Assembly (NCBI RefSeq): GCF_900101765.1
Contig: NZ_LT627735.1
Location: forward strand, 2,331,344-2,395,343
Direction of reading: 5' to 3'
Source: Nonlabens sp. Hel1_33_55
Lineage (GTDB): Bacteria > Bacteroidota > Bacteroidia > Flavobacteriales > Flavobacteriaceae
Length of the DNA stretch: 64,000 nucleotides
Shown here piece after piece: positions 20,590 through 60,902 of the stretch. A model generated the notes under the pieces. The model was not told the origin of the DNA, did no database searches, and saw nothing but the letters and a program-made list of their open reading frames with translations. The translations under genes and the position numbers were made by a program. Within the stretch, counting starts at the first letter, position 1. Each line of letters opens with the position of its first letter.

Positions 20590-20605
20590 CGCTTTCGCGA
20601 AAGTG
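20590..20605. repeat. 16-bp palindrome, 15/16 copy in the leuS-cyoE intergenic region
   Basis: CGCTTTCGCGAAAGTG. Confidence 0.8.
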
Positions 20606-20715
20606 AGGAGTAAATAAGCTTATTTGCAAGTGAAATGCATTTCTTAAAAACGCTCCTTCTCGACTGCCGCTCGAAGCGGCTTGCAAAAGTTTAAAACCAC
20701 AATTGCCCATAAACC

Positions 20716-20762
20716 AATGTCGAGCGACAGCGCTGCGCTGAGTTTACCGAAGCGTCGAGACA
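20716..20762. repeat. Diverged copy of the MITE-like repeat family (inner module CTG.GCTGAGTTTA.CGAAG..TCGA.GAC)
   Basis: TGTCGAGCGACAGCGCTGCGCTGAGTTTACCGAAGCGTCGAGACA aligns with the internally duplicated left arm of the element at 33557. Confidence 0.5.
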
Positions 20763-20861
20763 TGGTTCTTGCACAAATTACAGTACTACCTGTCATCCTG
20801 AACTCGTTTCAGGATCTGCTAGATTATTGTTCCCAGGACATGTTCACTCAAGATCAACGAG

Positions 20862-24999: not shown

Positions 25000-25071
25000 A
25001 GACAAAAGATCGCTGCACTCAACGACGAAAGACGAAAGACTATTCTGGTTGCGTAGAATTGATGATGAGTT

Positions 25072-25087
25072 CGCTTTCGCGAAAGCG
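25072..25087. repeat. 16-bp palindrome (perfect), intergenic between ftsX and DUF3098
   Basis: Exact match; about 20 bp upstream of the ATG at 25105. Confidence 0.95.
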
Positions 25088-25104
25088 GAATTATAAAAGA
25101 AATT

Positions 25105-29355: not shown

Positions 29356-30069
29356 ATGAACATATTCAAACGACTTTTCAAAATAGGACAGGCAGAAGCA
29401 AACGCAGCTGTCAACAACATGGAAGACCCAATCAAAATGACCGAACAAGGAATTCTTGATATGAAGGAAGACCTGAATAAAAGCGTAGAGGCAATGGCTC
29501 AAGTAAAAGCACTAGCTATACGCTCCAAAAATGACAAGGAAGAACATGCTGCTACCGCAAAGGATTATGAGCAAAAGGCTATAATTATTCTAAAGAAAGC
29601 CCATAGTGGCGAGATGGATACTACAGCAGCAGATCGACTTGCTAAAGAAGCGCTAGCCAAAAAAGAGGCAGCACAACTTAATGTAGAGCGTGCCCAGAAG
29701 GAAAGTGAGAAATTTGAGAATAACGTGGCTCAATTGAAGTCAACTATTGACACGATCAAATCTAATATCACCAACTGGGAGAATGAATTAAAGACATTGA
29801 AAGCGCGTGTCAAAGTAAGCGATGCAACCAAAAATGTCAATAAACAAATGGCAGAACTTGACAGCACTGGCACTGTGAGCATGCTTGAGCGTATGAAGGA
29901 AAAGGTAGCTCAAGACGAAGCACTTGCTGAAGCCTACAGCGACATGGCTGGATCAAGAACAAGTGTTGATGACGAAATCGACGCTGCGGCAGACACCAAA
30001 CAAGCTAAAGTGGATGACGACCTTGCCAAATTAAAAGCACAATTGGGCATCAAGAAGGATGAAGCATAA
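29356..30069 (+). CDS. pspA: PspA/IM30 family protein (phage shock protein A homolog)
   Basis: MNIFKRLFKIGQAEANAAVNNMEDPIKMTEQGILDM matches the PspA N-terminus (MGIFSRF...NALLDKAEDPQKL). It is a 237-aa coiled-coil protein. Confidence 0.8.
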   Translation: MNIFKRLFKIGQAEANAAVNNMEDPIKMTEQGILDMKEDLNKSVEAMAQVKALAIRSKNDKEEHAATAKDYEQKAIIILKKAHSGEMDTTAADRLAKEALAKKEAAQLNVERAQKESEKFENNVAQLKSTIDTIKSNITNWENELKTLKARVKVSDATKNVNKQMAELDSTGTVSMLERMKEKVAQDEALAEAYSDMAGSRTSVDDEIDAAADTKQAKVDDDLAKLKAQLGIKKDEA

Positions 30070-30139
30070 AATGCTTTTGAAGGGATTGGCAACAATGTCA
30101 GTCTAAGCGTGTAAAAACCTAACCATTAACAACCAACCA

Positions 30140-30853
30140 TTGGAAAACTATTTCAACATTCTATTTTCTGAAGTCAACATCACGCTTACCGTGCTGCTGC
30201 TCATCCTTATTGTTTATTGGATTTTTACCATGATCAGCGGTATTGATTTTGACCTGGATGTAGATGTGGACATCGATGTTGATGTGGATGCAGACCTAGA
30301 CATGGATTTTGACAGCATTGAAGGTGGCAACCTTGATTTTGAAGATGTTGCCAATGCAGAAGTGGATCGCGAGCACGTGGTCAACAAACGAACTCGACAG
30401 CTCAAATGGTGGCAAATCATATTGATTTACTTCAATTTTGTGGGTTTGCCGTTCATGTTCACCTTCACGTTTTGGATTTTCTTATGGTGGCTCATGAGCG
30501 TTTTAACAACAGCAGTAACAGGAAGCTATGATAATGTTTTTGGCTTCATTATCGTGCTGGCAGCTCTCATTCCAGCGCTATTTGTGACAAAAATCGTAAC
30601 CACACCATTTAAAGCGTTTTTCAAAAACTTGAATAAAGATGGCGACAAGGCAGTAGACTTTCTAGGCCGCAGCGCTATCTTGATGTCCTCCATTTCAGGA
30701 GATAAGTTGGGCAATGCAGAAGTGCTTGCCGATGGAAATCCCATGAGTATTTACGTCAAGTCGTTGGATGGATCAGAATTACGCTTTCGTGAAAGCGTGC
30801 TCATCATCAAGCAATCGGACGATAAAAATTATTTTTTAGTGAGTAAGGCGTAA
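30140..30853 (+). CDS. NfeD-like (YqiJ/DUF1449) membrane protein with C-terminal OB-fold
   Basis: N-terminal TM segment, an acidic DVDVDID repeat, further TM segments, and a C-terminal beta-barrel (GRSAILMSSISGDKLGNAEVLADGNPMSIYVKS). It sits immediately upstream of the flotillin gene, as in yqiJ-yqiK. Confidence 0.6.
   Translation: MENYFNILFSEVNITLTVLLLILIVYWIFTMISGIDFDLDVDVDIDVDVDADLDMDFDSIEGGNLDFEDVANAEVDREHVVNKRTRQLKWWQIILIYFNFVGLPFMFTFTFWIFLWWLMSVLTTAVTGSYDNVFGFIIVLAALIPALFVTKIVTTPFKAFFKNLNKDGDKAVDFLGRSAILMSSISGDKLGNAEVLADGNPMSIYVKSLDGSELRFRESVLIIKQSDDKNYFLVSKA
30782..30797. repeat. 16-bp palindrome, 15/16 copy in the NfeD CDS (RFRES)
   Basis: CGCTTTCGTGAAAGCG. Confidence 0.8.
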
Positions 30854-30861
30854 TCCATAAA

Positions 30862-30888
30862 GATGTCAGTCTGAGCTTGTCGAAGACG
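30862..30888 (+). repeat. Solo arm of the MITE-like repeat family (GATGTCAGTCTGAGCTTGTCGAAGACG)
   Basis: Exact family consensus, directly after the NfeD stop codon. Confidence 0.7.
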
Positions 30889-30964
30889 TGTCACTAAATA
30901 AAAAGATTAATAAATAATAACAACCGCAGAAACCATTCTGCACAACCATTAATAAAACCAAACT

Positions 30965-33037
30965 ATGGACGGAATTTTAGGAATTATTGTAACAGGACTG
31001 GGAATTCTCCTTTTCCTAGTCATCGTTTACTTCGCGATCATCGCGATGTTTTACAAAAAAGTACATCAAGGACAGGCGCTGGTGCGTACTGGTTTTGGAG
31101 GTACTAAAGTCGCGACAGACAAAGGTTTGTATGTAGTGCCGGTTTTCCACCGTGTGGAGACCATGGATATTTCAGTTAAGAAAATCCAGATTGAGCGTAT
31201 GGGCGTGGAAGGATTGATATGTAAGGATAACATGCGAGCCGATATCAAAGTAGCCTTTTTTGTACGCGTTAATAATGAGGTTGAATACATCAAGAAAGTA
31301 GCACAGACTATAGGTGTGCAGCGCGCTTCTCGCATTGAAACGCTAGAAGATCTTTTTGAAGCCAAATTCTCTGAAGCGCTCAAAACTGTAGGTAAGAAAT
31401 TCCAATTCATTGATTTGTACGAGGCTCGTCGGGAATTTCGCGATGAGATTGTGGATATCATTGGAACAGACTTGAATGGTTACACGCTGGAAGACTGTGC
31501 GATTGACTTTCTAGAGCAAACAAGTGTTGAATTTTTAAAGAAAGACAACATTCTGGATGCAGAAGGTATCAAGAAGATTACCGAATTGACCGCTGCGCAA
31601 AATATCAAGGCCAACTTGATCACTCGTGATGAAGAAAAAACAATTCGCAAGCAAGATGTTGAGGCTCGGGAAGCAATTCTCGAACTGGACAAACAACTCG
31701 CCGAAAAAGAAGAGCAACAAAAACGTGAGATTGCTAACATCAAATCTCGCGAAGACGCAGAAACTCTCAAAGTCGCCGAAGAAGAAAGACTCAAGTCTGA
31801 AACGGCACGCATAGCAACTGAGGAAAAAGTGAAAGTTGCCGAAGAAAACATGCAACGTCAGATTATTGTTGCAGAGAAAAACAAGCAACGTACCGATGCT
31901 GTAGAAACAGAACGCGTAGAAAAAGATCGACTATTAGAAGCAACAGAACGGGAAAGAGTCGTGACTCTGGCACAAATCGAGAAAGAGAAAGTAGTTGAAG
32001 TTGAGAAAAAGAACATCCAGGATGTCATTAGAGATCGCGTGGTTCTTGAAAAAGGAGTAGTTCAGGAGCAGGAAAACATGAAAGACATTGAAGCTTTCAA
32101 ATCTGCCGATCGTGCTAAACAAGTAGCCATTACAAATGCTGAGGCAAAAGCACAAGACGACTTGATCCGTATCACAATTGCTGCAGAGGCCTCTAAACAA
32201 GCAGCTGTTCAAAAAGCAGAGGAAATCAATATCGAAGCTCTTGCTCATAAAGAAGCCAGTGAAAAAGAAGCTGATGCACGTAAAATTCTTGCAGAAGCTA
32301 CCGCTAAAGAAGAAGCAACCGTTGGTTTATCTGAAGCACAAGTAATGCATGCAAAAGCTGAGGCTAGTGAACGTCAAGGAATTGTTGACGCACTGATCAT
32401 CCAGAAAAAAGCTGAAGCAGAGGCAAGCGGAATCACCGCAAAAGCGGCTGCAAAACGTCAAGATGGACTTGCTGAAGCCGAGGTTATCAAAGAAAAAGCC
32501 CTTGCAGATGCTGCTGGAATTGAAGAGAAAGCCAATGCGATGAAGAAACTCGATGGTGTAGGTAAAGATCACGAAGAGTTCAAACTACGTCTGGACAAAG
32601 AACTTCAAGTAGACCTGGCGCAAATCAACATCCAGAAAGATATTGCAGATGCACAAGCACAAGTGATAGGAGATGCATTGAGAGCGGCTAAGATTGATAT
32701 CGTTGGTGGTGAGACCATGTTCTTTGAACAAATCATCGGTCAGATCACTAAAGCCAAAGGTTATGATAGACTCGTGAATCATTCAGAAACGGTTACTGAA
32801 GTAAAAGATGCGATTCTAGGAAGTGGTGACGTGAAAGGGAATTTGCTTGATAAAGTCAAGGACTTTGCAGACCGCTACAACATCAGTTCTGAAGACATTA
32901 AAAACCTAACGATTGCCAATCTATTGATTGATTTACAGGCAAGAGTTGACAATAATGAAGACCAGAACATCTTGACCAACCTTATGAATCTGGCTAAAGG
33001 AATGGGGTTGTCCAATAAGAAGTTGGGTAATATCTAG
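30965..33037 (+). CDS. Flotillin-family SPFH-domain protein (YqiK-like)
   Basis: N-terminal TM segment, an SPFH/band-7 domain (QALVRTGFGGTKV...KVAFFVRV) and a long EA-rich coiled coil; 690 aa. Confidence 0.8.
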   Translation: MDGILGIIVTGLGILLFLVIVYFAIIAMFYKKVHQGQALVRTGFGGTKVATDKGLYVVPVFHRVETMDISVKKIQIERMGVEGLICKDNMRADIKVAFFVRVNNEVEYIKKVAQTIGVQRASRIETLEDLFEAKFSEALKTVGKKFQFIDLYEARREFRDEIVDIIGTDLNGYTLEDCAIDFLEQTSVEFLKKDNILDAEGIKKITELTAAQNIKANLITRDEEKTIRKQDVEAREAILELDKQLAEKEEQQKREIANIKSREDAETLKVAEEERLKSETARIATEEKVKVAEENMQRQIIVAEKNKQRTDAVETERVEKDRLLEATERERVVTLAQIEKEKVVEVEKKNIQDVIRDRVVLEKGVVQEQENMKDIEAFKSADRAKQVAITNAEAKAQDDLIRITIAAEASKQAAVQKAEEINIEALAHKEASEKEADARKILAEATAKEEATVGLSEAQVMHAKAEASERQGIVDALIIQKKAEAEASGITAKAAAKRQDGLAEAEVIKEKALADAAGIEEKANAMKKLDGVGKDHEEFKLRLDKELQVDLAQINIQKDIADAQAQVIGDALRAAKIDIVGGETMFFEQIIGQITKAKGYDRLVNHSETVTEVKDAILGSGDVKGNLLDKVKDFADRYNISSEDIKNLTIANLLIDLQARVDNNEDQNILTNLMNLAKGMGLSNKKLGNI

Positions 33038-33174
33038 GTTGATTTCTAGGGCGCTACACGGTTCTTTCTTTAGAAAGAATCGTGTCGGGCTATCCGCTAT
33101 ATCTTTTAAGCCTTATAGCCTTAAAAGGATACCGCTGCTATCCCTAGCGCGAGAAGCCAAAATATAATATTGAC

Positions 33175-33199
33175 TGTCAGTCTGAGCTTGTCGAAGACG
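33175..33199 (+). repeat. Solo arm of the MITE-like repeat family, upstream flank of the GIY-YIG gene
   Basis: TGTCAGTCTGAGCTTGTCGAAGACG. Confidence 0.7.
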
Positions 33200-33223
33200 G
33201 AATCATTAATCACTAAACCATCT

Positions 33224-33544
33224 ATGAAATTCTATTTTGTCTACATCTTAAAATGCAGCGATGATAGTTTTTACGCAGGTTTTACTTCTAATCTTGACCA
33301 AAGACTTGCAGAACATCAAATGGGTAAATCCGCTGGATATACATCTAAAAGATTACCCTTAGAATTGGTCTGGTTTGAGCAGTTTTTGGATTATCCAGAA
33401 CAAGCAATTCAATGGGAAAAGCGAATCAAAGGCTGGTCAAGGAGAAAGAAACAGGCATTAATCGATGGAAATTGGGACAATTTGATTTTGTTTTCAAAAA
33501 ACTACGCTGAGTATGGAAATAAGATTAAAAGAGTTGAAGATTGA
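33224..33544 (+). CDS. GIY-YIG nuclease family protein (YhbQ/UPF0213-like)
   Basis: FYFVYILKCSDDSFYAGFTSNLDQRLAEHQMG is a GIY-YIG motif. The protein is about 106 aa and is flanked on both sides by repeat-family copies. Confidence 0.7.
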   Translation: MKFYFVYILKCSDDSFYAGFTSNLDQRLAEHQMGKSAGYTSKRLPLELVWFEQFLDYPEQAIQWEKRIKGWSRRKKQALIDGNWDNLILFSKNYAEYGNKIKRVED

Positions 33545-33556
33545 TTCAAATTGAAT

Positions 33557-33660
33557 TGTCAGTCTGAGCTACACCTGTGCTGAGTTTATCGAAGTATCGA
33601 AGACGTTGTAGAAACTAATAAAGATGGTGCAGTCGCACTTCGACAAGCTCAGTGTGACAC
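33557..33660. repeat. Complete MITE-like element (inverted arm pair, left arm with internal duplication)
   Basis: Left arm TGTCAGTCTGAGC[TACACCTGTGCTGAGTTTATCGAAGTA]TCGAAGACG. Right arm GTCGCACTTCGACAAGCTCAGTGTGACAC is the reverse complement of the left arm. Confidence 0.7.
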
Positions 33661-33691
33661 AAACATTGAAAAATGAATATTGATACAACGA

Positions 33692-33775
33692 GATGTCAGT
33701 CTGAGCTTGTCGAAGACGATATAGGGACTAACAAAGCTTTTTAGAAGTCGCACTTCGACAGGCTCAGTGTGACAC
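33692..33775. repeat. Complete MITE-like element (inverted arm pair)
   Basis: GATGTCAGTCTGAGCTTGTCGAAGACG ... GTCGCACTTCGACAGGCTCAGTGTGACAC; 84 bp hairpin-forming. Confidence 0.7.
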
Positions 33776-33805
33776 GAGCATATAAAAAAGAGAAATGAAA
33801 TCGCA

Positions 33806-33831
33806 ATGTCAGTCTGAGCCTGTCGAAGACG
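33806..33831 (+). repeat. Solo arm of the MITE-like repeat family
   Basis: ATGTCAGTCTGAGCCTGTCGAAGACG, about 30 bp upstream of the giant ORF start. Confidence 0.7.
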
Positions 33832-33862
33832 ATTCGAACCAATAAAACTAACTACCATTTCA

Positions 33863-36800
33863 ATGGCAGATAAAGAACTAAAAGACACCACACAACTGGA
33901 CTCTGGAACTTACGAGATCATCCAGAGTCGATTGCTCAAGCAAAAAAATGACTTGCAGCAACGACTCCATGCGCTCAACGAAGAGCGCAAGAAAGTCTTC
34001 GGCTCGCTGGAAACTAGGTTGATTGCAAACGACCGTGTGAATACAGAGAATAACTGTATCGCTCGTGATATTGTGACCATCGGCAAGAACAGCATCTTTG
34101 GTTATAACGTGCACTTTGGATTACGTACAGAGATCAATCTGAGTGATGTTTTTAGTATTTATGAATTTGATCGGGAAGGGAAAGATGGTGATGCATTACG
34201 CTTTCGCGACCTGCCTGCCGGCAGGCAGGAAGCTGGGTCAAGTTTAGAACTCATTGAAGACCCAATCTTTCAAACCGACTTTGAAAATCTTTACAAGTAC
34301 TATCGCAATACCATTTTTTCCAAGTTTGCGATCATAGGGAATTACCTGCACATGGTTTTCCAGCTGAGTGATTCAGTGACGGATATCAAGACCTTTAAGT
34401 GGTTGATAAAAGAAAACGAATTGCAGTATGTGGACAACCGCAGTGAACACGAGTACCGTTTCCCAGCGCAATATGGATTTCAATGGAAAGAAGCTGGACG
34501 TGATAACCAGCGTGCAGGAAAGCACGGCCATGTATCGATTTTAGACAAAGTTTTTGTAGAAACTATAGGTGGTGATTTAACCATTAAAGTAGAAGATAAT
34601 ACAGACGATGGTCAAGGAATCTATCGGGAAGATGTAGAGCACCGCGACCAGACACTCGATGATGGTCAATACCGATATGCAGATTTAGGGAACCTCATCG
34701 TTCTAGAAATCAAACCATTTCAAGAAGAACCGCGTCATTTTGTGTACAACCACAAGATCAAGGAAGTAGAAAAAATTGACAGTATTGCTCAAGCTGCAGT
34801 GCTGTTACCAGACGAGCAAGGAATCATTTTCCCTAGCGGTTATTACTTGCAAACTGGTGAGTACAACGTGTTTCCAAGCGATGCTGGAAAACTAAAATTT
34901 CAGCAAAAAATTGCCTCGCCTAATGGTGAAGATCATTTATACGTTTTCTATAATGCTGCACAAGGATTGTACGTTCTCATGTCGTACAACGTGATTGATC
35001 AATCGGTAAAGACACCTATCGTTTGTAATGGATTTACAATTTTGGAACAAGGTGAGCTGTGCTACTTCCGTAATGGAGATGAGCAGACGAAGCACCACAT
35101 GATGCAAATATGGCAAACCCCTTATTTGAAAGGTGATATTGTACCGTCAGAGCATCAAGATACCATGCTCTATAAAATAGGTAACAAGGACATTGTAAAA
35201 GCAATGGCCGAAGCAAACGAGCTACTGACTCTTTTAAATAAAGAAGACAGCTACGGCGGTTTATATGATGATATCGCTCGTGCCTCAAAAGATATCCTAG
35301 ACGCATACTATTGGCTGCCAGAAGAGGAAACCAAGCAGATCAATCTGCCTCTTGGCGAAATCAACAAAGCATCTAATGCTGCGATTGACGAGTTTGAGAA
35401 AGTCAAGCAAATGCGCAAACAAGCAGCTGCAGAGACTAAGGATATTTCTAAAAAGGCTGAGACGCTATTCAGCAAAATAAAAAGCACGTCGTTCAAATCT
35501 ATTAATGATTTTGTAGAGCTGTTAACTCAACTGCGCAGTTTGCGTGGTGAAGCGATAGGTTTGTATGAAATACGTTATGTAGATACCGATTTCATAAAAG
35601 GAATCGAGGATCAAATCGTGGAGCAAAACGAAGTGATTTCTCGTCGTGCGGTTACCTTTTTGTTAGATGATAAGGCTCTAGCACCTTATCATGAGGCTGT
35701 TGCCGAAAAGCAAAAAGCTCTCGATGCTACTAAAAAGGTTATCGAGATTAAAAACCTTGAAAAGGAGGTCAATCAGATTGCAGAAGATCTGGAGTTACTA
35801 ATAGAAATCGTTTCTAATCTGGATATTGAGGACACGTCGCATTCCACTAAAATTATTGAGAACATCTCCTTGATATTTGCGACCATCAATCAGGTAAAAG
35901 CGGCGATTAAAAACAAGGTGAAAATTGTAGGTAAAAAAGAAGCTCAAGCCGATTTTGCCGCACAGCTGAAGTTGATTGATCAGAGCATTATCAATTACCT
36001 AGACATTGCCAACACGCCAGAAAAGTGTGATGAATTCTTAACTAAAATCTCCATACAGCTAGAAGAGCTAGAAGGAAAGTTTGCGGATTATGATGAGTAC
36101 ATCACAGAAATTATTGCCAAGCGTGAAGAAGTGTATGCCGCTTTTGATAATCGCAAAAGCAGTCTGATAGAAGCGCGTAATAAAAAGGCAATATCCTACC
36201 AAAACGCTGCAGAACGTATTATCAAAGGGGTTCAAAAAAGAGCACAATCACTGGATAGCGCGACAGAAATCAACGGCTATTTTGCCAGTGATTTAATGAT
36301 TAATAAAGTGCGAGACATCATCGCACAATTAAAAGATCTGGAGGACGCTGGAAAAGCCGAAGCCATTGAAACAGCCCTCAAAGTAGCTCGAGAAGATGCC
36401 TTGAGAAAACTCAAGGATAAGAACGAGCTTTATGAGGATGGTGATAACATCATCAAGCTGGGCAAGCATAAATTTGGCGTTAATAAACAACAGCTGGACT
36501 TAACCATAGTCTTCAAGGATAATGCGCTGTTTTATCATCTTACAGGGACCGATTTCTATCAGGAATTACACAATGAGATCCTGACGCAATCCAAAGGAAT
36601 CTGGAATCAAGAATTGGTTTCAGAAAACTCTGAAGTCTATCGGGCGGCTTATCTCGCCTACTCTATCTTTAAAACTGGAGACAAAGAAGCTTTGAGAATG
36701 ATGAGTCCTACAGATTTGCTATTGCGCGTGCAGGAAATAGCGAGCGGCAACTATTCTGGCGGTTATGTGAAAGGTGTTCACGATCACGACACAGCACAGA

Positions 36801-38875
36801 TTTTAAGCGTTTTATTACACAAACATCATGATCTAGGCTTGCTCACATATGATCCAAACACGAGAGCAAAAGCGCAGTTTTTTTGGAACAGTTTAGAGCA
36901 GTCGCAACGTTCCAACCTCAACCGTATTTTAAAAAGTGCTGGCGAGGTGTTATCTGTTTTTCCAGATAGTAAAGAGTATGATTTTATTGTGGAGGAATTG
37001 GCTGATGAGATTTTTAAAGCCAATAGTGCAAACAAGACCGACTTCGACAAGCTCAGTCTGACAAAGGAAAAAACACCAAGCGATGTCACGTTGAGCCTGT
37101 CGAAACGGAGTTTAGATTCTATAAAGCATAATTCCAACTCGACTGCTGGAAACGAACACCAAATCGCTGAATATCTATTCAATGAACTAAAAGACAACGA
37201 TCATTTTACTGTAAGTACGAGTGCTATTCAGTTAAAGGAAGCTTTTGAGAAAAAAATAAAATCTCAAAATGCCGATTTGAAATTCAAGAAAAGTCTAGAA
37301 GCCTGTGAGGACGAGAAGTCTAAAGTAGAACTGGTGAGACATTGGGTTTCTGCTTTCGCGAAAGCGGAATCAAAACAAGCTTTATTGCCCTATACAAACG
37401 AATGTGTTGCTAACATCCTCTACGGAAAACTGACTGCCGATAAAACGGTAGCAATATCGCCTGTGGAAACAATTACAGGATTAAAAGGATCGCATGGAAC
37501 GATCAACGAAAGTGAATTTGTATTCAATTACCACGAGTTTGTGAACGTTTTGGAGCATTTTACTACTGTAAAAGTGCCAGCTTATGAAACCTTTAGAAAA
37601 GCAAAACATCAAGTAACTGAAGAGTTAAAAGAATCGTTGCGATTGGAAGAATTCAAGCCACGAGTGCTAAGCTCATTTGTGCGTAACAAATTGATCGACC
37701 AAGTATATTTCCCATTGATAGGCGATAATCTGGCCAAACAATTAGGAACCGTAGGCGATACGAAACGTACCGACCGAATGGGATTGTTGCTCTTGATATC
37801 ACCACCAGGTTATGGTAAAACCACCTTGATGGAATACATGGCTAACCGGTTGGGCTTGATTTTTATGAAAATCAACGGTCCAGCTATAGGTCACGATATT
37901 ACCTCTGTAGATCCAGAAGCTGCTTCTAATGCGGCAACTCGTGAAGAACTCAAAAAGCTGAATCTTGCTTTTGAAATGGGTGATAACGTGATGTTATATC
38001 TGGATGATATCCAGCACTGTAATCCCGAGTTTTTACAAAAGTTCATCAGTCTGTCTGATGGAACACGTAAGATTGAAGGAGTTTATAATGGCAAGCCTAA
38101 AACCTATGATCTACGTAGTAAGAAATTCTGCGTGATCATGGCTGGTAATCCTTATACAGAAAGCGGAGATAAATTCCAGATTCCAGACATGCTTGCCAAC
38201 CGTGCAGATATTTATAATCTTGGAGATATCATAGGCGATACGGCTCATTTGTTTGAACTAAGTCTGGTTGAAAATGCATTAACGAGCAATCCAGTATTAC
38301 AACAGTTAAGTAACAAGCACTTTGATGATGTATATGCCTTAATCGATCGAGTTCAAAATGGCGCCAGCGATAACGAACTCAAAGGAAACCACAGCAACCA
38401 AGAAATAGCCGACTATGTCGCTGTCCTAGAAAAGGTATTGAAGATACGGGATACGGTTCTTAAAGTAAATGAAGCGTACATCGCCAGCGCAGGAATGGAA
38501 GATGCTTATCGTACGGAGCCTTCTTTCAAACTACAAGGTTCTTATCGTGATATGAATAAACTGGTCGCTAAAGTTGTTCCTATCATGGATGATAAAGAGT
38601 TACAAACTCTCCTATCATCACACTATGAAAGTGAATCACAAACCTTAACCAGCGCTGCAGAAGCAAACTTGTTGAAATACAAAGAACTGGTAAGCACCAT
38701 AAAACCAAAAGAGCAAGAACGATGGACAGCCATCAAAGAAATTTTTGCAAAAAATAACAAGCTGAACGGTCTAGGTGGGCAAAATCAAATGTCTCAAGTA
38801 TTGAATCAGATGATGGATTTTACTGAAAATCTAGAGGGAATAAAAGAGGTGTTGAAGAAAGGGTTAGCTAAGTAA
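33863..38875 (+). CDS. Giant multidomain protein (1670 aa) with C-terminal AAA+ ATPase module (MoxR/AAA_5-like)
   Basis: Continuous ORF. Walker A LLLLISPPGYGKTTL, Walker B VMLYLDDIQHCNPE, sensor-1 FCVIMAGNPYT and arginine ANRADIYNL at about aa 1300-1450. The N-terminal 1250 aa comprise a coiled coil, a beta-rich region and long helical arrays. It contains an in-frame copy of the repeat family at 37041-37107. Confidence 0.6.
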   Translation: MADKELKDTTQLDSGTYEIIQSRLLKQKNDLQQRLHALNEERKKVFGSLETRLIANDRVNTENNCIARDIVTIGKNSIFGYNVHFGLRTEINLSDVFSIYEFDREGKDGDALRFRDLPAGRQEAGSSLELIEDPIFQTDFENLYKYYRNTIFSKFAIIGNYLHMVFQLSDSVTDIKTFKWLIKENELQYVDNRSEHEYRFPAQYGFQWKEAGRDNQRAGKHGHVSILDKVFVETIGGDLTIKVEDNTDDGQGIYREDVEHRDQTLDDGQYRYADLGNLIVLEIKPFQEEPRHFVYNHKIKEVEKIDSIAQAAVLLPDEQGIIFPSGYYLQTGEYNVFPSDAGKLKFQQKIASPNGEDHLYVFYNAAQGLYVLMSYNVIDQSVKTPIVCNGFTILEQGELCYFRNGDEQTKHHMMQIWQTPYLKGDIVPSEHQDTMLYKIGNKDIVKAMAEANELLTLLNKEDSYGGLYDDIARASKDILDAYYWLPEEETKQINLPLGEINKASNAAIDEFEKVKQMRKQAAAETKDISKKAETLFSKIKSTSFKSINDFVELLTQLRSLRGEAIGLYEIRYVDTDFIKGIEDQIVEQNEVISRRAVTFLLDDKALAPYHEAVAEKQKALDATKKVIEIKNLEKEVNQIAEDLELLIEIVSNLDIEDTSHSTKIIENISLIFATINQVKAAIKNKVKIVGKKEAQADFAAQLKLIDQSIINYLDIANTPEKCDEFLTKISIQLEELEGKFADYDEYITEIIAKREEVYAAFDNRKSSLIEARNKKAISYQNAAERIIKGVQKRAQSLDSATEINGYFASDLMINKVRDIIAQLKDLEDAGKAEAIETALKVAREDALRKLKDKNELYEDGDNIIKLGKHKFGVNKQQLDLTIVFKDNALFYHLTGTDFYQELHNEILTQSKGIWNQELVSENSEVYRAAYLAYSIFKTGDKEALRMMSPTDLLLRVQEIASGNYSGGYVKGVHDHDTAQILSVLLHKHHDLGLLTYDPNTRAKAQFFWNSLEQSQRSNLNRILKSAGEVLSVFPDSKEYDFIVEELADEIFKANSANKTDFDKLSLTKEKTPSDVTLSLSKRSLDSIKHNSNSTAGNEHQIAEYLFNELKDNDHFTVSTSAIQLKEAFEKKIKSQNADLKFKKSLEACEDEKSKVELVRHWVSAFAKAESKQALLPYTNECVANILYGKLTADKTVAISPVETITGLKGSHGTINESEFVFNYHEFVNVLEHFTTVKVPAYETFRKAKHQVTEELKESLRLEEFKPRVLSSFVRNKLIDQVYFPLIGDNLAKQLGTVGDTKRTDRMGLLLLISPPGYGKTTLMEYMANRLGLIFMKINGPAIGHDITSVDPEAASNAATREELKKLNLAFEMGDNVMLYLDDIQHCNPEFLQKFISLSDGTRKIEGVYNGKPKTYDLRSKKFCVIMAGNPYTESGDKFQIPDMLANRADIYNLGDIIGDTAHLFELSLVENALTSNPVLQQLSNKHFDDVYALIDRVQNGASDNELKGNHSNQEIADYVAVLEKVLKIRDTVLKVNEAYIASAGMEDAYRTEPSFKLQGSYRDMNKLVAKVVPIMDDKELQTLLSSHYESESQTLTSAAEANLLKYKELVSTIKPKEQERWTAIKEIFAKNNKLNGLGGQNQMSQVLNQMMDFTENLEGIKEVLKKGLAK
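37041..37107. repeat. MITE-like element (arm pair in opposite arrangement) embedded in-frame in the giant ORF
   Basis: CTTCGACAAGCTCAGTCTGACA ... GATGTCACGTTGAGCCTGTCGAAACGG; translated as ...DFDKLSLTKEKTPSDVTLSLSKRS... Confidence 0.65.
37351..37366. repeat. 16-bp palindrome, 15/16 copy in the giant ORF (AFAKA)
   Basis: TGCTTTCGCGAAAGCG. Confidence 0.8.
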
Positions 38876-38913
38876 ATATTGGTCTAATTTGATCATTATC
38901 ACTTTAGAAATTA

Positions 38914-38953
38914 AAAAAGCCATCACAATTCAGTTGTGATGGCTTTTTCTTTT
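38914..38953 (+). terminator. Rho-independent terminator after the giant gene
   Basis: AAAAGCCATCACAA-TTCAG-TTGTGATGGCTTTTTCTTTT. Confidence 0.7.
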
Positions 38954-39234
38954 ATATCCTCTATACATCTTAAAGAGACTCAATCGCCTTAGTCGCTTTT
39001 TTTATACTCGCTTCTTTAGATTGACTAGTAAGATCAGCGGCAATAATTTTGACATCGTTAGTTATTTAAGAGCCGAGAAAAAGGCTTCACATAACAAGCT
39101 ATTAATCAACATTACTTCCAACTGACGCGCACTTATAAAATATACGCAATCAATTAAACAAGCGATCATCAAATCATTTTCACAATTTTTTAGCCTTGTC
39201 TAAAAAAAGATTTATACAAACCAAATTAATATTT

Positions 39235-39242
39235 TACCTTTG
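39235..39242 (+). promoter_or_regulatory. Candidate -7 promoter box TAccTTTG (leaderless dtxR-family transcript)
   Basis: Matches TAnnTTTG and ends 5 bp before the ATG at 39247, which would give a leaderless mRNA. Confidence 0.3.
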
Positions 39243-39246
39243 TCGT

Positions 39247-39903
39247 ATGCATTCAGTATCAGAGGAAAACTATATTAAGGCCATCTATCATCTTCAAAAA
39301 GGAACTGCGCTAGTTTCTACTAATGAGATTGCTGGAGAAATGAATACTAAGGCTTCCTCGGTTACGGATATGCTTAAAAGGCTGGCAGATAAAAATCTAG
39401 CAGAATACATTCCTTATAAAGGCTCGCGACTCACAAAGAGCGGCATCGATTGTGCCAACCAGATCGTTAGAAAGCATCGGCTTTGGGAGGTTTTTCTGGT
39501 AGAAAAGCTAGATTTCACTTGGGATGAGGTTCATGATGTGGCAGAACAGCTGGAACATATCCAGTCTCGCAAACTCATTGATGAACTGGATAAGCACTTG
39601 GGCTTTCCCAGAAAGGATCCGCATGGCGATCCTATTCCTGACCGAGATGGGAATTATGAAGAGGTCCAACAAATCCAATTATCAAAACTTACCAAGGGTG
39701 ATCAGGGAACCATCACTGGCGTTATCGATACGTCCAGTAGTTTTTTAAAATATTTGGATAAGCACCAGATAGAGTTGGGCAGTCATATCGAGGTCTTGGA
39801 ACGTGAAGAATTTGACGGGTCCTTCGTTATTAAAACCGATTATAAAACTCTACACATTTCACAGGCGATCGCAAACAATATTTATTTAAACTCCCAATCA
39901 TGA
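39247..39903 (+). CDS. DtxR/MntR-family metal-dependent transcriptional regulator with FeoA-like C-terminal domain
   Basis: The N-terminus MHSVSEENYIKAIYHL...SSVTDMLKRLADKNL is a DtxR HTH, followed by a metal-binding/dimerisation domain and a C-terminal SH3-like domain. Confidence 0.75.
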   Translation: MHSVSEENYIKAIYHLQKGTALVSTNEIAGEMNTKASSVTDMLKRLADKNLAEYIPYKGSRLTKSGIDCANQIVRKHRLWEVFLVEKLDFTWDEVHDVAEQLEHIQSRKLIDELDKHLGFPRKDPHGDPIPDRDGNYEEVQQIQLSKLTKGDQGTITGVIDTSSSFLKYLDKHQIELGSHIEVLEREEFDGSFVIKTDYKTLHISQAIANNIYLNSQS

Positions 39904-40640
39904 AAAAGTGGGCGTATTTCATGATGACTAGCTTTACGGCCTCAGGTTTTGCGCAAGAACTCATAGAGCCTGCGACAACCATGAATACTGGTGAATTTCA
40001 AGCACAGATTGCTGTGATCTATACAGAAAATAGTGAGTTCCGCTTTCGCGAAAGCGTACTAACCTACAACAATACCCTACTACTTTATGGCATTTTTCCT
40101 CATATGGAATTGCGTCTGGGAATTGATGTCAACTCCTCAGAAACCACGGATGGCGGCGCTAGGATAGGTGATAGAACTAGCGGTACAACGCCTTTACAGA
40201 TAGGTGCTAAATATCGCTTTTTCCAGCAGACTGAATCCACTCCGGAGATATCAGTCATGAGTCACGTATTTCTGCCACTTACGGCTAGTTCTGACAACAA
40301 ACCAAACTATACTGGATATGATCTCTGGGTTCTAGGATTACATCAAATCAACGATCAACATGCCGTCCGTGTTAATATAGGAGCGGCTACTGGTGGAGAT
40401 TCAAGAGGTATTTTGCCATTATATATTCTGGCCCACAACTGGCTACCCTTTGGGAAATGGGGTTTGAATACTGAAGTATATGGCGAATTTCCATCAAATG
40501 AATCATCCAAACATTTCTTTGACGTTGGTATTAGCTACTTTTTTAGACCTACGGTTCAGCTAGACCTCAACGCTGGTCGTGGCATCAACAATAACCAATC
40601 GATTCTCGCCAGCATGAGACTCACTTATACTATTATTTGA
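39900..40640 (+). CDS. Outer membrane beta-barrel protein (putative metal-uptake porin), first gene of the metal ABC operon
   Basis: Signal peptide, alternating beta-strand pattern and C-terminal aromatic residues. The ATGA overlap with the dtxR stop suggests translational coupling. Confidence 0.4.
   Translation: MKKWAYFMMTSFTASGFAQELIEPATTMNTGEFQAQIAVIYTENSEFRFRESVLTYNNTLLLYGIFPHMELRLGIDVNSSETTDGGARIGDRTSGTTPLQIGAKYRFFQQTESTPEISVMSHVFLPLTASSDNKPNYTGYDLWVLGLHQINDQHAVRVNIGAATGGDSRGILPLYILAHNWLPFGKWGLNTEVYGEFPSNESSKHFFDVGISYFFRPTVQLDLNAGRGINNNQSILASMRLTYTII
40041..40056. repeat. 16-bp palindrome (perfect), in the OM barrel CDS (RFRES)
   Basis: Exact match. Confidence 0.95.
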
Positions 40641-42335: not shown

Positions 42336-42356
42336 ATGCTGAAATGAATTCAGCAT
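42336..42356. other. Conserved hairpin ATGCTGAA-ATGAA-TTCAGCAT
   Basis: Same loop and inner stem as the 20862 hairpin; lies within the operon between the ATPase and permease genes. Confidence 0.4.
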
Positions 42357-42395
42357 GACAGAAACGGGAACTTGGAACTTTAAAACCAACAATTA

Positions 42396-48339: not shown

Positions 48340-48398
48340 TGGTGTGATCACTTCGACTTCGCTCAGGGACCTTAAACTTTTATATAAATGAGTTAAGC

Positions 48399-48437
48399 AA
48401 AAACTCCCATCAAGGCTGGCCTTGATGGGAGTTTTTG
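48399..48437. terminator. Bidirectional rho-independent terminator
   Basis: AAAACTCCCATCAAGG-CTGG-CCTTGATGGGAGTTTTT between convergent genes. Confidence 0.7.
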
Positions 48438-48914: not shown

Positions 48915-48950
48915 AAAAAAAGTCCTTGAAAATTTTCAAGGACTTTTTTA
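48915..48950. terminator. Rho-independent terminator (palindromic, A/T-flanked)
   Basis: AAAAAGTCCTTGAAAATTTTCAAGGACTTTTTT. Confidence 0.6.
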
Positions 48951-58628: not shown

Positions 58629-58654
58629 GTTTTAGAATAATTCTACTGAAAAAT

Positions 58655-58694
58655 CAAAAGGTGCGGAATTAATTCCGCACCTTTTGATTTTTAT
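58655..58694. terminator. Bidirectional rho-independent terminator
   Basis: AAAAGGTGCGGAATTAATTCCGCACCTTTTGATTTTT (10-bp perfect stem). Confidence 0.75.
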
Positions 58695-60786: not shown

Positions 60787-60868
60787 GAAATCTCTAAAAG
60801 GCCACAAATTTACAATATCTGTGGCAGCTTTAATGTTCTGTTGGGAGCAGTAATGAATGTAATGAATT

Positions 60869-60884
60869 AGCTTTCGCGAAAGCG
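60869..60884. repeat. 16-bp palindrome, 15/16 copy in the divergent metG / lipoprotein promoter region
   Basis: AGCTTTCGCGAAAGCG. Confidence 0.8.
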
Positions 60885-60902
60885 AGTTCCTTAGCATTCC
60901 TC

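Follow-up and report, generated by a model that had tools for sequence, protein, structure and literature searches.

In-frame hairpin repeats in a Nonlabens ATPase gene and their association with a small GIY-YIG nuclease gene

The gene of a very large ATPase in the marine flavobacterium Nonlabens sp. Hel1_33_55 contains, in its reading frame, a short palindromic sequence which belongs to a family of repeats. The initial annotation of the window (the whole stretch of 64,000 nucleotides analysed here, to which all coordinates refer) took this sequence for one mobile element of 67 bp at 37041-37107, analogous to the palindromic elements of Rickettsia. What is this element, how did it come to lie in a protein-coding gene, and does it have a protein partner?

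The in-gene repeat pair and its host gene

The following features define the locus.

33863-38875, plus strand: host gene, 1670 aa, with DUF3686, DUF7902 and AAA domains, annotated as 'DNA repair ATPase'
37019-37162, plus strand: hypervariable linker between the conserved blocks SKEYDFIVEELADEIFK and IAEYLFNELKDND, from an alignment of 113 orthologues and a DNA comparison
37040-37063, minus strand: unit R1, tag TGTCA and hairpin GA-CTGAG-CTTGT-CGAAG-TC; its plus-strand peptide is DFDKLSLT
37064-37083, plus strand: spacer between R1 and F, 20 nt, encoding KEKTPS(D)
37084-37107, plus strand: unit F, tag TGTCA and hairpin CG-TTGAG-CCTGT-CGAAA-CG, encoding VTLSLSKR

Positions 37040-37107 hold two inverted hairpin-repeat units of about 25 nt, R1 on the minus strand and then F on the plus strand, with the sequence GACTTCGACAAGCTCAGTCTGACA-aaggaaaaaacaccaagcga-TGTCACGTTGAGCCTGTCGAAACG (unit R1, spacer, unit F). 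The location had thus been given correctly and only the start was one base off. An inverted-repeat search places the arms at 37043-37063 and 37084-37104 (21 nt each, 81% complementary, 20 nt between them). R1 fits the 21-nt family pattern without mismatch (37042-37062, minus strand) and also matches a generalised hairpin pattern, and F fits the former with two mismatches, or 19/21 nt (37085-37105, plus strand). As had been claimed, translation is uninterrupted: the open reading frame 33863-38875 on the plus strand has no stop in either unit (...KTDFDKLSLTKEKTPSDVTLSLSKRSLDS...), and both units together give DFDKLSLT...VTLSLSKRS. Folded as sense-strand RNA, the pair reaches −25.8 kcal/mol (z −3.8), and z is −3.4 for the DNA; of the four mismatches between the arms, two are G·U in the sense strand, and the 4-bp stems of both units are intact. 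The consensus C-G stem pair has become T-A in unit F. Both changes are synonymous, and this could be a chance product of two synonymous transitions.

The host protein matches Pfam PF12458 (E 5e-180), PF25472 and PF00004; a Nonlabens sp. Hel1_33_55 protein in the database is 100% identical to it, and 5026 homologues were found. The alignment of 113 full-length orthologues, complemented by the DNA of selected relatives, shows that the linker varies in all lineages and is everywhere rich in Ser, Thr, Asp and Lys; it has 48 residues in Nonlabens sp. Hel1_33_55 vs 9 in N. ulvanivorans. This variability suggests that the linker tolerates changes in length, in agreement with the tolerant region that had been predicted as the insertion site. 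Two further insertion hot spots occur in the orthologues, after residues ~1170 and ~1500.

Among these orthologues, the repeat is restricted to some Nonlabens and to Aquimarina, so the proposal of a lineage-specific in-frame insertion holds. The linker is short and free of repeats in N. ulvanivorans, Dokdonia, Tenacibaculum, Leeuwenhoekiella and all other genera except Aquimarina, and most orthologues, including some that are 90% identical, lack the pair. The same peptide encoded by non-repeat DNA in distant relatives, which had been put forward as a sign of convergence or of an ancient origin, was looked for among the orthologues and not found. Relative to the empty orthologues the extra DNA amounts to 117 nt (39 aa), instead of the 22 or so residues first estimated.

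R1 and F do not form one 67-bp element: each is a unit of its own, with its own history of gain and loss. Several Nonlabens have R-F, F-R or R-F-R combinations at the site. Among the relatives compared, the site is empty in L001, carries R1-F in L204 as in the window, F-R2 in L002 and L003, R1-F-R2 in L205, and R1-F plus a nested insert in L206. The F unit of the window is homologous to those of L002, L003, L204 and L205, and its spacer to that of L204 and L205. The native segment SSES is kept between F and R2, which indicates that the units entered separately and not as a block.

The pair is common to the window and a 91%-identical relative. It is therefore old enough to be shared at this distance, and it is decaying in some lineages: L204 has a G to A change in the core, the units of L205 and Aquimarina are degenerate, and the changes in all three are synonymous. 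The decayed pair of Aquimarina lies at the same spot of the linker in another reading frame and is an independent insertion. Across the different orthologues, the repeat DNA is read in three frames. No pair of empty and filled sites (L001 vs L002/L003; the intergenic unit at 30865 vs relatives) was clean enough to give insertion boundaries or a target-site duplication. In these comparisons the sequences were too diverged, or other hairpins stood in place.

The repeat unit and its family

Other members of the family lie upstream in the window, most of them around a small nuclease gene.

20734-20756, plus strand: variant unit with a different loop, CG-CTGAG-TTTAC-CGAAG-CG, from the generalised hairpin scan
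30864-30889, plus strand: solitary F unit, with a plus-strand gene on either side
33175-33200, plus strand: intergenic F unit which ends 24 nt before the GIY-YIG start codon
33224-33544, plus strand: small GIY-YIG nuclease gene (106 aa), whose product is the candidate partner of the repeats
33559-33607, plus strand: F unit with a nested variant unit (TGCTGAGTTTATCGAAGTA) in its loop, 15 nt past the GIY-YIG stop, found by direct reading
33633-33720, no single strand: intergenic dimer I3, made of R, a 34-nt spacer and F, with arms of 22 nt that are 91% complementary
33748-33832, no single strand: intergenic dimer I4, made of R, a 32-nt spacer and F, from the inverted-repeat search

At least 9 units are present in the window, where about 0.01 would be expected by chance. 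The 20-nt arm (≤3 mismatches) gives 7 matches and the 21-nt pattern GTCANNCTGAGCYTGTCGAAG gives 8, against an expectation of 0.01 in each case (from shuffles for the latter), which bears out the claim that the giant reading frame contains a copy of the family; the generalised hairpin scan returns 8 matches vs 0.22 in shuffles. The arrangement of the in-gene arms, described at first as opposite to that of the other copies, is nothing unusual: R, spacer and F also follow each other in the intergenic pairs at 33638-33715 and 33753-33828. As DNA, these dimers fold with −22.5 kcal/mol (I3, z −6.2) and −24.2 kcal/mol (I4, z −6.4). An Rfam scan of 30000-40000 with E up to 1 returned no family for the units, its sole real match being Flavo-1 at 33079-33162. 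Flavo-1 adjoins repeat units.

The unit consists of a (T)GTCA tag followed by a hairpin, NN-CTGAG-loop-CGAAG-N'N'. From the base, the hairpin has two covarying pairs, C-G, T-A, two G·A positions, one G-C and a 5-nt loop; four Watson-Crick pairs, two of them covarying, therefore lie below the G·A positions. The CTGAG/CGAAG module can, from its sequence, be drawn with tandem G·A pairs. The loop is short or holds a nested hairpin. Nearest-neighbour folding does not favour the hairpin of a single unit (z about 0 to 1), so that covariation was used instead and carries the case for this hairpin. In 148 instances picked without any pairing requirement, the two variable positions form standard pairs in 97% and 96% of cases, with six standard pair types each, and the covariation score is 0.468 vs 0.096 in shuffles (0 of 500 shuffles reach 0.468). 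The stems of R and F units differ within dimers (CA/TG vs GT/AC), which means that each unit is complementary to itself and that the arms are mismatched at those positions. The search pattern itself required GTCA; at the unconstrained position just before it, 74% of the instances have T and 14% have C, and no excess pairing was found at the would-be partner positions of the tag. A hammerhead-like reading of CUGA...GAA was ruled out by inspection: it lacks the core positions G8 and A9, and stem I would not fit.

The exact motif was located in >120 genome stretches from >15 phyla, and its 11-nt core is nearly invariant across phyla. In-frame copies are found in MetH, RecN, LeuRS and PrmC of other genomes, and the peptides VTLSLSK, FDKLSLT, LRQAQ and HPELVEG recur in reading frames of the sampled loci in several phyla. 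The initial annotation considered such in-frame persistence to be rare outside Rickettsia and Neisseria. This is contradicted by the copies sampled in other genomes, about 6% of which are candidate intragenic ones, and by Di Nocera et al. (2013, PMC3733652), who reported such copies from several species, in many of which repair genes are hit. Literature searches on the DNA strings of the motif and their variants found no relevant paper.

The GIY-YIG nuclease gene beside the repeats

In 120 loci of many phyla that contain the motif, the sole recurrent family of neighbouring genes is GIY-YIG. The protein encoded in the window matches PF01541 (E 2.4e-17) over residues 4-76 and has no other domain, and the catalytic-type residues Y7, Y17, R27, H31 and E65 are invariant in the alignment of its homologues. 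[quoted passage not shown]

The flanks of the gene were surveyed in 80 metagenomic loci of GIY-YIG homologues. A plus-strand unit lies ≤150 nt upstream in 52/74 loci (70%), a minus-strand unit ≤150 nt downstream in 54/76 (71%), and both sides are occupied in 40/70 (57%); on either side taken singly, about 30% of the loci have no unit. The density is 4.45 units per kb near the gene vs 0.30 per kb beyond 300 nt. The upstream units peak at −20 to −45, with which the 33175-33200 unit agrees. The gene is also flanked by units in L001, L034, L207 and L208, and so are the homologues of Sphingomonas and Methylobacterium. The flanks in the window are F...F(nested), against the usual F...R.

This organization resembles that of the Ssn nucleases and of the Ssn-related motifs (SRM; NTS/dRS3 in Neisseria) described by Chenal et al. 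(Nat Commun 2025, PMC11893778). SsnA cuts the hairpin repeats which flank its gene, as single-stranded DNA (PMC11893778). Like the protein of 106 aa studied here, the Ssn proteins are small single-domain GIY-YIG nucleases (~100 aa; 94-110); in both systems hairpin repeats lie on both sides of the gene, with further copies elsewhere in the genome, scattered or in clusters, and a YGTCA tag directly precedes the hairpin, with a layout of 8-nt arm, 3 nt, 8-nt arm. The frequencies of association are of the same kind: 71% of the ssn genes have at least one motif and 42% have motifs on both sides (PMC11893778), compared to ~70% per side and 57% for both sides here. The repeats nevertheless differ. 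The published SRM pattern, HGTCWYN(0-2)YYVSBRHN(0-5)WNVSBRGN(0-2)RNCYNB, which matches the NTS control, has 0 matches in the window, does not fit any of three consensus forms of the unit and is matched in 4/80 GIY-YIG loci only. The upper stem is CTGAG/CGAAG with potential G·A pairs here, whereas that of the Ssn repeats is Watson-Crick and GC-rich, and the loop of the unit may carry a nested hairpin. The likeness is drawn from gene and repeat sequences, and the nearest solved structures are UPF0213 proteins. It is proposed, tentatively and at somewhat less than even odds, that the motif is the cognate single-stranded DNA site of a UPF0213/Slx1-like GIY-YIG clade, perhaps distinct from the Ssn proteins of cd10448. 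The main text of PMC11893778 mentions neither Bacteroidota nor Flavobacteria, nor does it contain the word 'intragenic', and literature searches found no follow-up to that study; those on GIY-YIG with REPIN/RAYT and on COG2827/UPF0213/YhbQ found nothing on an association with repeats.

Related repeats and alternative explanations

The analogy with Rickettsia appears to be closer than was claimed. The CGTC-tagged REPs include RPE-4 and RPE-6 of Rickettsia and dRS3 of Neisseria (Di Nocera et al., BMC Genomics 2013, PMC3733652), and the combination of TGTCA tag, hairpin and GIY-YIG is the architecture of these CGTC/TGTC REPs and of the Ssn-related motifs (PMC11893778) as well; the link to RPE-4 and RPE-6 is drawn through the literature from this architecture, not from RPE consensus sequences. 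They have an unpaired terminal tag, often TGTC (T also precedes GTCA in most units here), and short hairpin units, often in inverted dimers and clusters, and copies in frame within genes, often those for replication or repair, lengthen the protein by about 20-30 aa (PMC3733652). A dedicated transposase is known for neither group. Their stems, in contrast, are of 8-9 Watson-Crick base pairs that start with A-T pairs and their loops are of 4-5 nt, whereas the present stem has four Watson-Crick pairs and one G-C around two G·A, with a 5-nt loop; moreover, those families are mainly found in Alphaproteobacteria, unlike this motif.

The in-gene pair is an in-frame repeat in a conserved protein and is absent from orthologues, which is the criterion of the functional class of RPEs. 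The resemblance to RPE-1, reportedly described by Ogata et al. in 2000, and to Correia elements is that palindromic repeats lie in frame within functional genes and add a surface peptide. RPE-1 and Correia elements are single elements of 100-155 bp, and the latter have terminal inverted repeats and a TA duplication, whereas the present units are of about 25 nt and were inserted one at a time. The pair does not have the hallmarks of Correia elements and MITEs (100-300 bp, terminal inverted repeats, target-site duplication); no duplication is visible at the linker.

The units might instead be ordinary REPs or REPINs that a RAYT (a Y1, IS200-like transposase) mobilises in trans, in which case the GIY-YIG gene would just happen to lie in a repeat-rich spot. 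REPIN/RAYT systems and BIMEs, reportedly described by Nunvar in 2010 and by Bertels and Rainey in 2011, share with this family the tag and hairpin unit, the alternating arrays, the single-copy nuclease-type gene flanked by repeats, and the inverted doublets able to form a long hairpin (I3, I4 and the in-gene pair, z −3.4 to −6.4). REPIN- or BIME-like dimers and alternating arrays do occur among the units, and in L002 and L003 a RAYT-like gene (NF047646, E 5.7e-12) occupies the intergenic slot of the window's GIY-YIG gene. On both sides of this gene, however, lie palindromes of another family (GGGCGGATGCGATCCGCCC / GACGCATGCGATGCGTC) and not the present units; no Y1 transposase recurs beside the motif in the 120 loci, whereas GIY-YIG does. 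The tag is GTCA instead of GTAG and the partner is GIY-YIG instead of a Y1 HUH transposase. The fixed geometry, upstream forward and downstream reverse (40/70 loci), is hard to call a coincidence, and this explanation is improbable.

An origin as a native low-complexity linker which resembles the repeat by chance or convergence is hardly credible, although the linker is rich in Ser, Thr, Asp and Lys and variable in all lineages. Indeed, R1 and F match the family at 21/21 and 19/21 nt vs 0.01 expected in shuffles, so that chance resemblance is effectively refuted; the motif is absent from the orthologues outside a few lineages, and the same DNA is read in three frames among the orthologues. The hairpin could also have been kept for a role in mRNA or DNA (a pause of ribosomes between domains, an effect on mRNA stability, or a site for recombination), considering its good folds (z −3.8 as RNA, −3.4 as DNA), the two G·U mismatches, the intact 4-bp stems, and the frequency of intragenic REPs in repair genes (Di Nocera et al., PMC3733652). 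Such a role is unlikely: most orthologues, even 90%-identical ones, do without the pair, its arrangement varies by lineage, synonymous changes are eroding the units of L204, L205 and Aquimarina, and similar insertions are found in unrelated proteins.

The preferred reading, with a probability of about 80%, is that the in-gene feature is a pair of dispersed hairpin repeats with a GIY-YIG nuclease as partner; the pair has been reshuffled and is decaying in a variable linker, most likely as a passenger that the protein tolerates. The partner would be the small single-domain nuclease whose gene is flanked by an upstream forward and a downstream reverse copy of the unit. [quoted passage not shown] GIY-YIG enzymes are hydrolytic nucleases and, to our knowledge, none of them carries out strand transfer. 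The units would have landed in the linker of the DUF3686/AAA ATPase, which is hypervariable and tolerant of changes in length, and may have persisted there because a unit has exactly one closed reading frame per orientation, leaving two of three open, and because the encoded peptides are polar. Gain and loss of units and allelic recombination would later have reshuffled the pair, along with slow decay.

The in-gene pair thus ties selfish DNA in coding genes (RPEs, intragenic REPs) to GIY-YIG nucleases specific for single-stranded DNA, in a phylum where neither subject had been discussed. The recognition element is sharply defined (a near-invariant 11-nt core and two covarying pairs) and the candidate enzyme has only 106 residues, so that the partnership is directly testable with oligonucleotides. 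If it is real, it would widen the range of site-specific single-stranded DNA nucleases, explain the VTLSLSK/FDKLSLT/LRQAQ/HPELVEG peptide signature in several phyla and offer a natural system in which the tolerance of proteins to repeated linker insertions can be studied. If the UPF0213/Slx1-like reading is true, this would be a second partnership of nuclease and repeat, with a near-invariant core and a range that covers Bacteroidota, Eremiobacterota, Alphaproteobacteria and more than ten other phyla. Since the units are repeatedly found in frame in housekeeping genes (those of the ATPase, MetH, RecN, LeuRS and PrmC), they would then be a general source of linker peptides.

Unit anatomy and copies in the window

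The ATPase ORF (33863-38875, +) is 100% identical to a Nonlabens sp. Hel1_33_55 protein, and thousands of homologues carry the annotation "DNA repair ATPase"; Pfam detects DUF3686 (E 5e-180), DUF7902 and an AAA domain. At 37040-37107 it contains GACTTCGACAAGCTCAGTCTGACA / aaggaaaaaacaccaagcga / TGTCACGTTGAGCCTGTCGAAACG, that is, two copies of a hairpin repeat of about 25 nt (the unit), one on the minus strand (R1) and one on the plus strand (F). The arms, each of 21 nt (37043-37063 and 37084-37104), are 81% complementary and separated by 20 nt, and the pair is translated through as ...KTDFDKLSLTKEKTPSDVTLSLSKRSLDS.... In the window, the 20-nt arm has 7 matches at ≤3 mismatches (0.01 expected), the 13-nt core TTCGACARGCTCA has 8 exact copies, and the 21-nt pattern GTCANNCTGAGCYTGTCGAAG has 8 matches (0.01 expected), including both in-gene arms (0 and 2 mismatches). 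The read-through translation and these counts, far above expectation, bear out the in-frame repeat described in the initial annotation. The remaining copies in the window are all intergenic.

Repeat units in the window
37040-37063 (-), in-gene unit R1
37084-37107 (+), in-gene unit F
30865, single intergenic unit
33176, single intergenic unit
33559, intergenic unit with a nested unit
33638-33715, intergenic R-spacer-F pair
33753-33828, intergenic R-spacer-F pair

The arm order of the in-gene pair had been considered to be opposite to that of the other copies, but the intergenic pairs have the same R-then-F order.

The exact 21-nt pattern is present in at least 120 genome stretches. The hosts among the matches listed are Bacteroidota, Eremiobacterota/Vulcanimicrobiota, Verrucomicrobiota, Nitrospirota, Ignavibacteria, Calditrichota, Zixibacteria, Acidobacteriota, Chloroflexota, Armatimonadota, CPR groups, Spirochaetota and Proteobacteria. 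Conservation ends sharply at the borders of a unit of about 26 nt. The two free positions of the pattern pair with the two positions directly 3' of it; both partners lie outside the search pattern. Standard pairs are found in 97% of cases for one variable pair and 96% for the other, with six standard pair types each. The covariation score (0.468, versus 0.096 in shuffles) is reached by 0 of 500 shuffles, and the signal collapses in slid controls. Based on the conservation limits and the covarying pairs, the unit is (T)GTCA + N N C T / G A G C Y T G T C G A / A G N' N'. Within it, CTGAG and CGAAG can form the pairs C-G, T-A, G·A, A·G and G-C around a 5-nt loop, which in related loci is exchanged for other short loops or for a long nested hairpin. 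The generalised hairpin NN-CTGAG-N(3-45)-CGAAG-N'N' occurs 8 times in the window, versus 0.22 in shuffles.

In the intergenic dimers, the stem is CA/TG in R units and GT/AC in F units, so that every unit is complementary to itself but the two arms are mismatched at those positions. The sequences suggest that the hairpin of the individual unit, rather than the long hairpin between the arms, is under selection. In energy models the hairpin of a single unit is not favoured (z about 0 to 1), but dimers fold well: -14.5 kcal/mol as DNA (z -3.4) and -25.8 kcal/mol as RNA (z -3.8) for the in-gene pair, and z about -6 for the intergenic pairs. Some units are nested in the loop of another, between CTGAGC and TCGAAG (33559-33607 (+) in the window, and around 4340-4420 in L206, a locus of another genome), which suggests that the loop itself is a possible insertion target.

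Two copies of a third type of hairpin, GTCATCCTGAACTCGTTTCAGGAT and GTCATGCTGAATTCATTTCAGCAT (20792-20815 (+) and 42336-42359 (-)), have a GTCA tag and a perfect 7-bp stem, in which a compensatory C/G swap separates them; this type is closer to canonical TGTC-tagged REPs. At 20600-20760, an intergenic cluster combines a GCCGCTCGAAGCGGC hairpin with a larger imperfect palindrome that encloses a variant unit (CGCTGAGTTTACCGAAGCG, 20736-20754). Palindromes of the GCTTTCGCGAAAGC type recur at 10754-10785, 25065-25094 and 60860-60893, with a similar one near 20590-20605. Perfect palindromes adjoining gene ends (44 nt at 58649-58692, 40 nt at 48398-48437, 34 nt at 48916-48949) are probably terminators.

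Insertion history in the ATPase gene

In an alignment of 113 full-length orthologues, the repeat is located between the conserved blocks ...SKEYDFIVEELADEIFK and IAEYLFNELKDND.... At this site the linker is short and repeat-free in Dokdonia, Tenacibaculum, Leeuwenhoekiella, Winogradskyella and others, and the N. ulvanivorans protein (90% identical overall) has 9 residues (SSESASSLS) versus 48 in the window, whose gene has 39 extra residues and not the approximately 22 estimated initially. Other Nonlabens orthologues show the order F-R (P0003 and P0004, VTLSLSKRS...DFDKLSLT), R-F-R (P0022), or R-F with an enlarged F loop (P0009). An Aquimarina orthologue (66% identical) reads LRQAQ...TLSLSKR, the same DNA in another reading frame, partly decayed. 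The repeat is thus lineage-specific, absent from many genera and from N. ulvanivorans and present in some Nonlabens and in Aquimarina; the widely varying linker lengths agree with the proposed insertion into a tolerant linker. Two further hot spots, after residues ~1170 and ~1500, contain insertions with the same peptides in orthologues.

DNA comparison shows that the native TCTGAGTCTG of N. ulvanivorans (SSES) is kept between F and a further R unit, R2, in two loci of relatives (L002 and L003). The units were therefore inserted one by one, at both sides of this segment, and what had been taken for a single 67-bp element consists of two units with separate histories. R1-F is common to the window and to the 91%-identical L204, both without R2, and the window sequence RSLDS-I-KHN... 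looks like the L003 type minus R2.

In a neighbour-joining tree built on gap-free columns of the alignment, insertion-bearing genes are scattered among empty ones. P0004 is placed among the empty N. ulvanivorans genes although it contains the F-R2 insertion and, downstream, a flank like that of the window (IAEY; L003 7088-7303 compared with the empty L001 7085-7198). The scattering, and the disagreement between placement and flank, point to recombination between alleles as well as gain and loss of units, and suggest that the P0004 linker allele was imported by a recombination tract. Overall, the initial observation is confirmed and its interpretation is supported with the corrections described.

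The gene order PspA_IM30, zinc-ribbon protein, unannotated 237-aa protein, 690-aa Band_7 protein and giant ATPase is kept in the window (29356-38875) and in L001-L003, which suggests that the ATPase gene belongs to a membrane-stress or flotillin-linked module rather than to classical DNA repair.

A GIY-YIG gene flanked by units

The 106-aa ORF at 33224-33544, between the units at 33176 and 33559, encodes a bare GIY-YIG domain (PF01541, E 2.4e-17), whose nearest solved structures are the UPF0213 proteins BH0048 and EF2693. Among ORFs ≤150 nt from the motif in the 120 cross-phylum loci listed, GIY-YIG is the only family recurring between unrelated loci. In the reverse test, on 80 metagenomic loci encoding homologues of this protein, the core lies ≤200 nt from the ends of the GIY-YIG gene in 46. 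The geometry is fixed: upstream, a forward unit ends 20-45 nt from the start codon; downstream, the stop codon is followed after 2-50 nt by a reverse unit. When the generalised hairpin is used, 52/74 loci have the forward unit upstream, 54/76 the reverse unit downstream and 40/70 both; the density of units is 4.45 per kb close to the gene versus 0.30 per kb at >300 nt. Plasmid-borne homologues of Sphingomonas (45% identical) and Methylobacterium (50% identical) are also hairpin-flanked.

The interval between the Band_7 and ATPase genes also contains a Flavo-1 RNA (RF01705, 33079-33162 (-), 56 bits, gathering score 42, E 2.8e-10), immediately upstream of the F unit at 33176 and of the GIY-YIG gene. 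In relatives, the slot equivalent to that of the GIY-YIG gene is occupied by a 200-aa RAYT-like Y1 transposase gene.

ORFs in the equivalent slot of relatives
L002 3150-4000, RAYT-like gene (NF047646, E 5.7e-12)
L003 3312-3923, RAYT-like gene (faint Y1_Tnp match)
L205 710-1312, unannotated 200-aa ORF

Copies of a second palindrome family, GGGCGGATGCGATCCGCCC / GACGCATGCGATGCGTC, lie on both sides of the L002 gene. Judging from peptides only, this family also appears to be translated into the ATPase in some lineages: such peptides occur in the N-terminal regions of orthologues P0018, P0019, P0032 and P0040, for example DASRPNS/DASHPKS repeated in tandem over 60 aa in P0019 and stretches of ASQAS in P0032 and P0040.

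Related systems, proposed mechanism and persistence

Ssn proteins (cd10448), small single-domain GIY-YIG proteins, are ssDNA-specific, site-specific nucleases whose genes are flanked by cognate hairpin repeats, NTS (CGTCATTCCCGCGMAVGCGGGAATCYRG, dRS3 included) or more generally SRM; at least one motif is nearby in 71% of homologues, and motifs are on both sides in 42%. The authors themselves point to the likeness to REP/RAYT (Chenal et al. 2025, PMC11893778). dRS3 and Rickettsia RPE-4 and RPE-6 belong to the CGTC-tagged REPs (often with a TGTC tag), which "lack a dedicated transposase" and are found in frame inside genes of several species, often repair genes (Di Nocera et al. 2013, PMC3733652). 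Our units share with the Ssn/SRM repeats the same logic and layout (5-nt YGTCA tag, 8-nt arm, 3 nt, 8-nt arm). However, the published SRM search pattern has no match in the window and fails on the unit consensus, while it matches NTS; the stem differs from the 8-9 bp Watson-Crick stem of CGTC REPs; literature searches did not find these sequences, and no Rfam family matches the unit. For these reasons the units are considered akin to the Ssn/SRM and CGTC-REP kind, rather than demonstrated members.

Of 164 exact copies in the cross-phylum sample, 10 are in stretches that continue without a stop for at least 100 codons in both directions, which sets an upper limit to the number of intragenic copies. 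The clear cases are given below, with host genes according to our reading of the translated ORFs.

In-frame copies in other genomes
L029 5086-5189, unit dimer in methionine synthase
L095 580-600, unit in RecN
L108 2455-2475, unit in leucyl-tRNA synthetase
L122 7409-7429, unit in PrmC
L042 6120-6140, unit in a restriction-type helicase

These in-gene units and the in-frame REPs of several species (PMC3733652) show that such insertions are not limited to Rickettsia and Neisseria. In IMG/VR, 90 stretches of viral or proviral contigs contain the exact motif as well (L210-L299), with >10 copies in some contigs (e.g., IMGVR_UViG_3300025154_000037); they may represent either flanking host DNA or a path of horizontal spread.

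The data show units with a defined structure, a wide distribution and a GIY-YIG gene as partner, which have been gained and lost at orthologous sites and can be nested in each other's loops. By analogy with SsnA, the nuclease probably recognises the unit in single-stranded DNA and nicks it near the tag, and the resulting breaks, or their repair, might seed new copies. As for persistence inside the gene, a simpler explanation would be the combination of open frames, polar peptides and a length-tolerant linker. Each unit orientation has exactly one closed reading frame; the open ones encode CQSELVED and VSLSLSKT (forward) or RLRQAQTD and VFDKLRLT (reverse), those used in the ATPase gene give the polar peptides VTLSLSK and FDKLSLT, and the linker tolerates many lengths. 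In-gene units drift by synonymous change (TCG to TCA in L204) and are degenerate in L205 and Aquimarina, which fits a passenger rather than a selected function. In the window, R1 matches the pattern perfectly and F retains a 4-bp stem; both may thus still be substrates of the nuclease. What this analysis adds is the identification of the repeat family and of its probable nuclease partner.
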